Shown here: positions 21,001-24,000 of the stretch, in pieces
Position numbering within the stretch: position 1 is the first letter of the stretch
How the letters are laid out: each line of letters starts with the position of its first letter
NCBI GenBank assembly: GCA_965261595.1
Contig: CBDHDG010000007.1
Span: forward strand, 160,001 to 224,000
Source: a bacterium
GTDB taxonomy: Bacteria; UBA8248; JACPRG01; G963555815
Direction: 5' to 3'
Length of the DNA stretch: 64,000 bases
Position numbers: made by a program

Positions 21001-24000
21001 CTTGATATTCACTTCATTATATTCCTGAACGTCTTTATCCTCCAGGAGTTTCTCCCGAATCTCCGGAAAGATCCCCCGCACACCATGATCGGAAAATATG
21101 ATGTTGAGGGTTTTTTCGACAATCTTCAGCCTTTCCACACGCCGAATGAGCTCTCGAATCAGGCGATCTTGGCAGCGGATTGCGTTCCGGCATCTCCCAT
21201 ACAGGCCCGATTCCGGAAATCTCTGTCGATCCCCGATGCGTCACCGGCGAACCGGCATCTTGAAAAGATATCCCGGACGGCCCACCTCCGGAAGAGGCGA
21301 AGCCGAACGCCACGGACTGTCACGCCCGACCCGGCTCGAAGCCGGAGGCCGCCTTCACGGAAGCCGGTTGCGGCGGGGTCAGGCCCAACCTATGATGAAA
21401 TGATAACCCTTATCACCAATGGATCCCCGGACTTTGCCGATGGCCAAGCGCAGAATGGAAGCCCTTCTTCTCAGCCGGGACGCCGCGCTCGCGGACGAGC
21501 TGGATGGACTGTTGAATTCTTTGGGTTTCAGCGTTGTCCGGAACGCGCCCCCGCACCGGGCGGGAGGGAAACCGCCCCGGATGCCCAGGGCCGACGCCGG
21601 GCCCCCGCTCCTTATTGTGGACGGGCGGGATTATCTGGGCGTCTGTCTATCCGATTCATCGGTCGAGGCGCCGGCCCCTCCCCTTTCCTCCCTCCCTCCT
21701 CTCCCCCCCACGCTTCTTCTGTTGGACGCCGGGGACCTCGATATCCCGGCCGGCCCGCTCATGGCGGACGAGGTGGCGTGTCTTCCCCTCCGGGCGAAAG
21801 AGGTCCGCCTCCGCGTCCGGAATCTTTTGGGGCCCCGGGTGTACGGCCGGCCGGATTCGCCCGGACCCGCCCGTCCCGTGGCGCCGTCCCGCGGTTCGGC
21901 AAAAGCGGAGGTCGCCGCCGCTTCGGGCCTCCGGTTGGATGAAGAGCGGTACGAGATCACGTTGGGCGGCAAACCCCTCGACCTGGCTTTCCGGGAGTAC
22001 GAGCTGCTCAAACACCTGATGACGCATCCGGGCAGGACCTTCACGCGCGAGCACCTGCTTGCCCGGGTCTGGGGGGAGGATTACTTGGGGGGAACGCGCA
22101 CGATCGACGTCCACATCCGGCGTCTGCGCATCAAGTTGGAGGCGGGCGGGCGCGAGCTCATCAAGACGGTCCGCAGCGTGGGATACAAATTCACCGGTTG
22201 AATCAGTGCGGCTCACAACGAATTAACACGGAATTCATCCTGCCGTAACTTTCCTGAAATATTCCTCGGTTATATAGAACGGGTCTCTTCGAGATCTCCG
22301 GCTCGCCCGGGCATGCCTCGGATGAGGTCGGAAGACAGGGTCCGTGAAGGTTTTCCGTTCAAAAGGCCGGTCCGTCGCGGCGGGTAAGGTTTGCTTCTCC
22401 ACCCTGGCGGGGATCTTGCAGTCCCATCGGCCCGTACATCCATTGTCAGCGTTACATAAGGAGGACCGAATGGCCAAGACCACGAAACGCGCGTCATCCG
22501 CCGCCAAAGGCGCCGGGAAGGCCGCCCCGGCCAAATCCAAAGACCGGGAGTACATCCTTCGTCTTGCGAAGGAGAACAACGTCAAGTTCATCCGGATGTG
22601 GTTCTCGGACGTTCTGGGCAACCTCAAGAACTTCGCCATCACGTATGAGGAGCTGGCGACCACCCTCTACGAGGGCCAGGGCTTCGACGGCTCCTCCATT
22701 CAGGGTTTCGCACGCATCGACGAAAGCGACATTGTCGCGATGCCCGACACCTCCACGTTTCAACTGCTCCCGTGGCGAAGCGGCCCGCAGGGGCGCGTCG
22801 GCCGGATGTTCTGCAACATTCTCAATCCCGACGGCACCCCTTATGAGGGCGACCCCCGGTATATCCTGACGCGGAACCTGAAAGAGGCCGCCGACTTGGG
22901 ATACACGTTCTACATCGGACCGGAGCTGGAGTTTTTCCTCTTCAAGAATTCCGGCGGAACGGAGATCCTCGATCACGGCGGGTACTTCGACATGACCTCG
23001 CTGGACGCGGCCAGCAACTTCCGGCGCGACGCCGTCCTGACCCTTCAGGCCATGGGGATCGACGTCGAGTACAGCCACCACGAGGTCGGACCCAGCCAGC
23101 ACGAGATCGACCTGCGCTACACCGACGCCCTCACCATGGCGGACAACTGCATGACCTACCGGCTGGTCGTGAAGGAAACGGCCATGGCCCATGACATGTA
23201 CGCCACCTTCATGCCGAAGCCGCTGTTCGGCGAAAACGGCAGCGGAATGCACACCCATCAGTCGCTCTTCAAAGGGACCAAAAACACCTTCTTCGACCCG
23301 AAAGACAAAAACTCCCTGTCCGACGTGGCGAAGAGATACATCGCGGGCCTGTTGCGGCACATCCCCGAGATCAACGTCGTCCTGAACCAGTGGGTCAACT
23401 CCTACAAGCGGCTGGTCCCCGGTTACGAGGCGCCCGTCTACCTCACCTGGGCCATCCGCAACCGCTCGGTCCTGGTCCGCGTGCCGGTCTACAAGCCCGG
23501 CCATGAGCAGGCCACCCGGGTGGAGCTTCGCTCTCCGGACCCGGCCTGCAACCCCTACCTCGCCTTTTCGGCCATGCTGGCCGCCGGTCTCGCCGGAATC
23601 AAAGGGAAATACAAGCTGGCCGCTCCGGTCGAGAGCAACGTTTACGAGATGGACGCGCAAGAGCGGGAGAAGCTGGGGATCCGGGAGCTGCCCTCCGACC
23701 TGAACGAGGCCATCAAGGCGGCCGAGGACAGCGAGCTCCTGCGGAAGTGTCTGGGCGACCACGTATTCACCAAGCTGCTCGAAAACAAGCGAATGGAGTG
23801 GCACGAGTACCGCGCCCACGTCTCGCAGTTCGAGCTGGAAAAGTACCTGCCGATCTTGTAGCCGACATGTTTCGGCCCGGATCGGCTCGGGACGCCCGCG
23901 AGTCCGGGAGGGGGGTGAAAGGTCGGTTGTCCTGATGGGCAACCGGTTCTCCTCCCCTCCCCCTCCTCCCGTGTCTATTGTGATCCCTCAAGCTTGCCCG

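Follow-up and report, generated by a model that had tools for sequence, protein, structure and literature searches.

Introduction

OmpR-type GlnR is the described nitrogen regulator of actinobacteria and NtrBC that of enteric bacteria, the signal of GlnR still being called unknown (PMC10235972, PMC10704036). The published GlnR consensus reads gTnAc-n6-GaAAc-n6-GtnAC-n6-GAAAc (PMC10704036), and in the solved GlnR complex four protomers are bound, with the last site downstream of −35 (PMC10235972). The available portion of PMC12632262 names GlnR for actinobacteria only. Among glutamine synthetases, a close described case is GlnA1 of Methanosarcina mazei, in which 2-oxoglutarate, bound by F24, R26, R87, R172, R173 and S189, activates the enzyme, while R66 mediates its inhibition by glutamine (PMC11957540, PMC10799026, PMC11800386); the pocket motif alone is no proof of activation (PMC10799026). 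Among the listings and abstracts covered (subscription journals and RegPrecise lie outside this scope), no report of an OmpR-type GlnR outside Actinobacteria was found, nor, in the same scope, one of a lineage free of PII, GlnD and GlnE like that described below.

The window, i.e. the whole stretch of 64,000 nucleotides analysed here, carries an OmpR-type regulator gene directly before glnA. A survey of the genome had described it as an actinobacterial-type GlnR, separated from glnA by a GlnR box, in a Gram-negative phylum and in a family (f1) that has lost PII and kept AmtB and glutamine synthetase.

Results

The locus

The reading frames of the regulator and of glnA are as earlier described (Table 1), an ATG at 21419 being a possible alternative start of the regulator upstream of 21440. 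LpxC, present in all five genomes tested, supports the description of the phylum as Gram-negative. A metagenome scan returned one identical locus and no new leaders, and Rfam gave no match in 7 loci. One homologue of 60% identity carries the NCBI label Nitrospinota.

Table 1 Features of the regulator–glnA locus (positions in the window)
Feature	Position	Strand	Details
OmpR-type GlnR-like orphan regulator gene	21440..22201	+	253 aa
Four-site box, 11-bp period	22223..22260	+	TTAAC 22223–27, TTCAT 22234–38, GTAAC 22245–49, GAAAT 22256–60
Predicted −10 element TATATA	22271..22276	+	10 nt below last box site; no consensus −35
Sigma-54-like −24/−12 motif in glnA leader	22405..22420	+	possible second promoter; observed in this genus only; found post hoc
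glnA ribosome-binding site AAGGAGG	22458..22464	+	sequence reading
glnA, glutamine synthetase type I-alpha	22470..23861	+	463 aa; TIGR00653 above cut-off

The regulator protein

The protein consists of a pseudo-receiver (about residues 5–135) with D61-G62-R63, a Pro-rich linker and a winged-helix DNA-binding domain (about residues 160–253). Its sole Pfam match was PF00486 (OmpR DNA-binding domain), with no match to PF00072 (Response_reg) or to GlnR_1st (PF21695); three other members from the phylum scored 15–16 bits against the GlnR_1st cut-off of 27, and a GlnR-like protein of Ferrimicrobium (Actinomycetota) also stayed below it at 21.6 bits. The best NCBIfam match was PhoB TIGR02154, at 92.6 bits against a cut-off of 296. 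No histidine kinase family was recognised among the scanned neighbours of the regulator; in family f4 the gene upstream of it encodes a VWA protein.

The best PDB matches were GlnR entries, as the survey had noted, namely 8HIH, 8HML and 8HIG. Its further statement that the likeness to GlnR structures is confined to the DNA-binding domain holds for the single protein but not for the family, since a 20-row family profile matched 8HIG (167 bits) and 8HIH (161 bits) over the full length, with RegX3 at 157.5 bits in the same profile search. When aligned with the DNA-contacting residues of M. tuberculosis GlnR, as listed in the available text of PMC10235972, the regulator was identical at 11 of 14 positions and conservatively exchanged at 1, the deviations being K153 to R, T151 to A and N214 to S. 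The recognition helix is common to the regulator and PhoP-like proteins.

Comparison of the receivers came out in favour of the GlnR assignment: the receiver is atypical, with the Asp kept, an Arg two residues on and the phosphorylation pocket lost. By motif columns it lacks the acidic pair and has Leu in place of the Lys; D61-G-R63 aligns with D-G-R of Streptomyces GlnR, and S12 with the Thr. Phosphorylation of the Asp is unlikely. The D-G-R motif is conserved throughout family f1, and receivers of family f4 have D-D-A in its place and retain the Lys. A first structure model (20 rows), with a receiver pLDDT below 50, was superseded by a 132-row model (mean pLDDT 83), in which the receiver fold is predicted with a Pro-rich loop replacing helix 2. 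Structure-based full-length identity reached 37% with 8HIH and no more than 31% with any other full-length chain listed, and in fold searches GlnR could not be told apart from the remaining OmpR proteins. A receiver homodimer prediction (residues 4–136, two copies) scored 0.39, the mark being 0.42. Overall, the regulator belongs to the GlnR clade and would work like GlnR, while standing outside the narrow Pfam family.

Placement among OmpR regulators

The survey's finding had come without a tree against other OmpR regulators. In the full-length tree built here (95 rows), a branch with 100/100 support divides 66 GlnR-like rows from the 29 canonical ones; similarity to the query had guided the choice of the GlnR-like rows, the bootstrap was unsettled (0.914), and the tree was calculated without a mixture model, without named RegX3 and without proteobacterial PhoB. 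Five of the 80 outside loci, being ordinary kinase-linked regulators, served as outgroups, and L195 was dropped from the tree set. A receiver-only tree likewise placed all 29 canonical rows apart (SH-aLRT 94), and a tree of the DNA-binding domain had three Bacillota PhoP-like regulators inside the GlnR group.

The regulator groups with actinobacterial GlnR (100/100), as had been proposed. The clade also contains Chloroflexota, Armatimonadota and other phyla, and the branches of the phylum (100/95) and of Actinomycetes (100/99) are separate members of an unresolved fan. The term actinobacterial-type is therefore overstated, the clade being multi-phylum and the branch of the phylum not being resolved as sister to Actinomycetes; given this breadth, the regulator is neither specific to actinobacteria nor shown to be a recent transfer. 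A clade of the phylum plus Actinomycetes was absent from the free tree and cost 23 log-likelihood units, and the AU test did not reject it (p 0.078). About 140 clusters (50% identity) scored 168–201 bits, and the solved actinomycete GlnR chains 161–167 bits, with the same profile.

Among the best 80 of 589 matches of a named-genome scan, 12 GlnR-like loci bore labels from outside Actinomycetota; a further locus, labelled Acidobacteriota but grouping with Acidimicrobiia, is not counted among them. In four of the 12, two of them from Dehalococcoidia, one from another member of Chloroflexota and one from Armatimonadota, glnA or amt lies no more than 4 kb away, and three of these four have boxes of 25–30 bits with the same spacing. 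Both Dehalococcoidia loci have the order regulator-box-amtB-glnK, which in L166 extends to glnA. A link of GlnR-like genes to glnA/amtB was also seen in Acidimicrobiia.

Distribution in the phylum

Reported earlier from 12 of 15 genomes, the regulator was found in 47 of 51 in the larger sample, these genomes being related so that the counts are not independent. The gene is whole in 46 and split across two contig ends in G008; it was not found in G003, G006, G019 (79% complete) and G041 (87% complete). It occurs in all four families. The 47 readable loci come from 46 genomes, a 48th locus ending at a contig end. The described neighbourhood, glnA in 11 of 12 loci and amtB in the twelfth, recurred, with glnA as the next nitrogen gene in 35 and amt in 12 of the 47 loci; in one locus a methyltransferase gene lies between the regulator and the nitrogen gene. 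Since glnA follows downstream of amtB in 10 of the 12 amt-type loci, the arrangement regulator-box-amtB-glnA looks like the older form. G003 (one contig, 98% complete) has neither the regulator nor any box; its native locus retains only an internally deleted glnA remnant, and a box-less paralogue is used instead.

Box and promoter

The survey had counted a two-site box, GTnAC-n6-GAAAy with at most one mismatch, after the regulator in 10 of 12 loci, without a chance control. It was present in 39 of 47 intergenic regions, against a mean of 1.5 and a maximum of 4 in 100 dinucleotide shuffles. The box between regulator and glnA is thus real, but its two-site form is incomplete: the full element comprises four pentamers at an 11-bp period, 10 nt and a −10-like hexamer, and it marks a regulon across the phylum. 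Of the 47 loci, 40 have the spacing of 10 nt from box to TA, whereas shuffles gave it in 1.4 on average and in 6 at most. The layout agrees with the consensus in PMC10704036 and the complex in PMC10235972, as far as given in the available texts. The −10 of relatives is mostly TAnnnT, and in this genome the final T is missing; a complete sigma-70 consensus promoter was not found in the regulator–glnA region. At glnA, only the last two sites are present in genus g8 and in two further loci, and the anchored box was absent after the regulator in seven loci (four genomes of genus g14 and three others).

In a scan with a matrix built from 38 sites of 10 other genera (own genus left out), the box of the locus was the top match of the 6.17-Mb genome at 27.8 bits, the runner-up reaching 20.0 bits and five shuffled genomes peaking at 19.5–22.0 bits. 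The four-site pattern had a single match in this genome, at the glnA box. The pstS promoters of two Bacillota PhoP-like regulators scored 22.5 and 30.5 bits in the same matrix, and the motif alone therefore does not identify GlnR.

In two studies, four RNA libraries yielded near-identical contigs that span glnA and its leader from 22296; such contigs show no strand, start or level and may include DNA. They leave the regulator gene uncovered, which is no indication as to its expression. One RNA run containing the stretch is labelled sponge metagenome.

The regulon across the phylum

The four-site pattern matched 93 times, with matches in 47 of 51 genomes, and the reversed pattern used as control only 4 times. 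Of these matches, 61 lie at most 500 nt upstream of amt (37), PII (16) or glnA (8). While 19 of the 61 adjoin the regulator and shaped the pattern, the other 42 are not beside it and so did not; boxes before unlinked amtB, PII or glnA genes therefore argue for a regulon. From the remaining 32 matches, 20 were fetched, and 11 downstream proteins from 10 of these were scanned, among them the urea-binding protein urtA (TIGR03407, above cut-off), a branched-chain-type ABC permease, an OprB porin, a creatininase and a Rieske/cytochrome b pair, with several lacking a firm match. No phosphate genes were recognised at the 61 classified or the 20 further fetched sites. In several genomes glnK-amt2 is preceded by two-site versions of the box. 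G006 (600-contig assembly) is an exception, having a perfect box and no regulator found. The pattern points to a GlnR-type activator with a phylum-wide nitrogen regulon in an LPS-bearing phylum.

The family without PII

That family f1 is devoid of PII was borne out, with 0 of 7 family genomes against 43 of 44 elsewhere, and PII in 13 of 14 control genomes. PF08335 (GlnD and GlnE) and GS-Ibeta show the same distribution (each 0/7 against 43/44), G043 being the sole exception among the 44 in all three cases; in this genome, a tblastn search with the PII of a relative gave no match at E < 1. The family genomes are 93–100% complete, and three of the six others are in at most 6 contigs. The picture of a family that lost PII and kept AmtB and glutamine synthetase needs amendment: Amt is present in 5 of 7, but the whole PII-GlnD-GlnE-GS-Ibeta set is absent and the AmtB is a different, box-less paralogue. 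Judged by the G001 copy, the family's protein is an AmtB-like channel that is intact and shares about 34% identity with the type linked to the regulator; no box was found in the amt regions of the 5 family genomes.

The four sites and the 10-nt spacing are retained in 6 of 7 family genomes, and six have exactly one four-site match each, at glnA. A two-site matrix scan of this genome for a second target gave nothing over background (23 matches exceeded 16.5 bits, 8 of which belong to a single repeated element, where four shuffles gave 11–19). At the sensitivity of the scans used, no further boxes are present, and the regulon of the family is reduced to glnA alone.

Large GltB is missing here and was found in the family only in G003 and G006, in agreement with the two of six other genomes noted before. 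An FMN glutamate-synthase domain on contig C7 (about 353 kb) was rejected as GOGAT; it lies within a TIGR03105 GS-III/amidotransferase cluster, read as methylamine use. With large GltB missing, glutamate probably comes from dehydrogenases or uptake; PF00208 Glu/Leu/Phe/Val dehydrogenases, assigned to family and not to substrate, were present in all 5 family genomes tested.

The glutamine synthetase

The closest solved entries to the glnA product were 8TFB and 8S59, presumably Methanosarcina mazei entries. Their residue pattern fits the M. mazei numbering in the available text of PMC11957540. By residue mapping, the 2-oxoglutarate pocket is predicted to be complete here (F40, R42, R103, R185, R186, S202), with R82 as the predicted glutamine-feedback arginine; the product also has a basic N-terminal tail. 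Among the 37 phylum genomes with a GS-Ialpha read, 36 have the full set of 2-oxoglutarate residues; in the two box-less paralogues these residues are degenerate, and Staphylococcus/Bacillus-type enzymes in the same alignments miss several of them. Because PII-bearing relatives also have the pocket, it predates the loss of PII and is no response to it; it may have made PII dispensable. As pocket and feedback arginine are both kept, the enzyme may sense nitrogen directly. On balance we favour, with some reserve, a reading in which nitrogen status is registered by the enzyme itself, which would be switched on with 2-oxoglutarate at the intersubunit pocket and off with glutamine at R82.

Discussion

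Given the gene, its clade, the box with its spacing and the company of nitrogen genes observed above, the regulator probably binds the box and would activate glnA from a promoter without a good −35. Four monomers would occupy the four sites head to tail. With the last site falling between −35 and −10, the protein bound there could reach the beta flap and sigma region 4, in the manner of the solved GlnR complex. In PII-bearing families the same box would control amtB-glnK and glnB-glnD-glnA(I-beta), together with genes for the uptake of urea and amino acids and for porin-like proteins. In family f1, without the post-translational set and a boxed amtB, the regulon would have shrunk to glnA, and nitrogen status would most likely be read by the glnA enzyme. 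As a whole, this explanation (a GlnR-clade activator of glnA, a shrunken regulon and sensing at the level of the enzyme) is in our judgement probable.

A different account of the family shares the activator step and differs in control only: the regulator could be a signal-blind, constitutive helper of glnA, or the module could be decaying in an ammonium-rich niche, transcriptional nitrogen control being gone in either case. The single target, the absent PII set, the loss of the whole unit in G003, the Pro-rich loop replacing receiver helix 2 and the sponge metagenome label of the RNA run fit this account, which keeps an appreciable, minor share of our belief; the retention of the four sites with their spacing in six of seven family genomes, and of the D-G-R motif across the family, argues against it. 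We regard it as rather unlikely that PII, GlnD, GlnE and GS-Ibeta were never lost, i.e. that the family is the earliest branch and an enteric-type set was acquired later in the rest. The regulator tree does put the family sister to the two other sampled families, and glnB-glnD-glnA(I-beta) is clustered as one transferable block, but the order in Dehalococcoidia L166 and the glnA downstream of amtB in 10 of 12 amt-type loci make the amtB-containing unit look older than the family, and PII is near-universal (13/14 controls). A later gain is a stronger proposition for GlnD, GlnE and GS-Ibeta than for PII.

Transfer of the regulator gene into the phylum from Actinomycetes would account for the D-G-R motif that the family has in common with Streptomyces GlnR, and the AU test leaves a phylum-plus-Actinomycetes clade at p 0.078; such a transfer is nonetheless improbable in view of the 23 log-likelihood units that this clade costs and its absence from the free tree, the roughly 140 clusters that outscore the solved actinomycete chains, and the presence of the gene in all four families. 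Very improbable is a degenerate PhoP/RegX3-like regulator that arrived at nitrogen genes independently of GlnR: the full-length and receiver-only trees set apart all 29 canonical rows, an adjacent kinase is absent, phosphate genes were recognised at none of the 61 classified and 20 fetched sites, and the glnA/amtB link repeats in Chloroflexota, Armatimonadota and Acidimicrobiia, all of which outweighs the common recognition helix, the similar boxes, the three PhoP-like rows mixed into the DNA-binding-domain tree and the best NCBIfam match to PhoB, far under its cut-off. Finally, the sigma-54-like leader motif could be the main glnA driver in this genus, with the GlnR promoter secondary. The motif is rare (63 such motifs in the 6.17-Mb genome), sigma-54 activator domains are present and the boxed promoter has a −10 that deviates from consensus in this genome. 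We hold this to be a slim prospect: the motif occurs only in two close genomes (this one and G001) and was not seen by eye in the leaders of G002, G004, G005 or G006, rpoN reads frameshifted in this assembly, and the RNA-library contig begins upstream of the motif, though such contigs cannot show starts.

With the GlnR-clade activator as the preferred reading, the picture is one of a GlnR-type regulon joined to the PII-GlnD-GlnE set outside Actinobacteria, and of one family that keeps a one-gene regulon. A GlnR regulon in an LPS-bearing phylum, together with GlnR beside nitrogen genes in Armatimonadota and Chloroflexota, would substantially change how nitrogen control is seen to be distributed among bacteria. 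The family without PII would be a natural reduction: if glnA is still nitrogen-responsive there, the signal cannot run via PII, GlnD or GlnE. Tentatively, and with more doubt than for the parts above, GlnR may be old and multi-phylum, and the family may represent a PII-free minimal circuit of one GlnR, one promoter and one glutamine synthetase sensing 2-oxoglutarate and glutamine in archaeal style, the latter enzyme perhaps being the input of GlnR.

Comparison with known systems

Actinobacterial GlnR (Streptomyces, Mycobacterium, Saccharopolyspora; 8HIH, 8HML, 8HIG) and the regulator described here have in common the OmpR winged helix with the GG-x-RT-V/I-DVH-V/I-RR loop and helix, the orphan state, a receiver with Asp-x-Arg and without acidic pair and lysine, four 5-nt sites at an 11-bp period, and glnA, amtB, PII and urea uptake as targets; the box-to-−10 layout, known here from sequence, is like that of the solved activation complex. 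In contrast to actinobacterial GlnR, the host here has LPS genes, the regulator adjoins its target, the first site is TTAAY, the receiver is under the GlnR_1st cut-off with a Pro-rich loop for helix 2, the protein stands on a separate branch of the clade, and family f1 has one target and is without PII, GlnD and GlnE. PhoB, PhoP, RegX3 and WalR have the same fold, a similar recognition helix and 11-bp repeats near −10, but keep the phosphorylation residues and the kinase, precede pstS in the examples, and branch apart from the clade when full-length sequences are used.

The archaeal GS I-alpha enzymes (M. mazei GlnA1, Methanothermococcus GS), compared by residues, have their six pocket residues, two permissive small positions and feedback arginine all present here; the enzyme differs in being bacterial, in having Asn for S38, in its basic N-terminal tail and in having no PII partner. 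With the enteric PII-GlnD-GlnE-NtrBC system, compared on the genes for PII, GlnD/GlnE and GS-Ibeta, 43 of the 44 genomes of other families agree, but the glnB and amtB promoters of those families carry GlnR boxes, and family f1 is without these genes. The Bacillus arrangement of MerR-type GlnR/TnrA and GS I-alpha is alike in having a regulator gene directly before GS I-alpha and a feedback arginine, whereas the regulator fold is unrelated and only the name GlnR is common to both.

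Possible loss and likely transfer of nitrogen genes

Outside the PII-free family of the window genome (f1), one genome of another family, G043 (L029, L252, L253), was likewise found without PII, GlnD/GlnE, GS-Ibeta and four-site GlnR boxes; these absences concern two unlinked loci in a genome that is 91% complete, and a second loss is possible. The AmtB of G039, a member of family f4 (L088), was likely acquired by transfer, judging by sequence identity, since it shares 84–86% identity with the AmtB of family f1 versus about 60% for the other f4 copies. The glutamine synthetase of G003, an f1 genome, carries a basic N-terminal tail in approximately three repeats; such a tail was present in all aligned f1 glutamine synthetases and absent from the f4 enzymes.

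In other phyla, a Massilia (Pseudomonadota) contig (L167) contains a gene of the GlnR clade that has a site scoring 21 bits immediately upstream and no nitrogen gene within 4 kb; its presence there is to be ascribed to either transfer or contamination. The GlnR-clade gene of an Omnitrophota locus (L172) was preceded by an NAD+ synthase gene.

Gene neighborhoods and box-associated elements

The three-gene run following glnA was common to the window genome and G006; in G002 its last two genes, the short-chain dehydrogenase and the methyltransferase, come after glnA, and all three were present in G003, 3' of the glnA remnant. In the first 200 nt of L127, L129, L131 and L133, a GC-rich hairpin without a clear ORF was located 3' of the box and −10 element; Rfam gave no match, and the hairpin may belong to a small RNA under GlnR control. 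In G046, a Rieske/cytochrome b pair was preceded by a box nearly identical to the one at the amtB promoter.

The rpoN gene of the window genome (G000) was split over two frames and was also broken, at positions differing from this one, in G003, G004 and G005; a frame of 509 codons was found in G001. The breaks are probably assembly indels.

Positions of the features described
Feature	Position	Strand or placement
Two adjoining genes	window 14568–16264	minus
PTPS (queD-like), short-chain dehydrogenase, methyltransferase	window 24078–26148; L247, L248, L251	3' of glnA
rpoN	G000:C1:180421–181888	
Glutamine synthetase, G003	L246:4737–6227	
Box before the Rieske/cytochrome b pair	L139 (G046:C129:21353)	

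The two adjoining window genes presumably resemble a HipA-like kinase and a HIRAN-domain partner.
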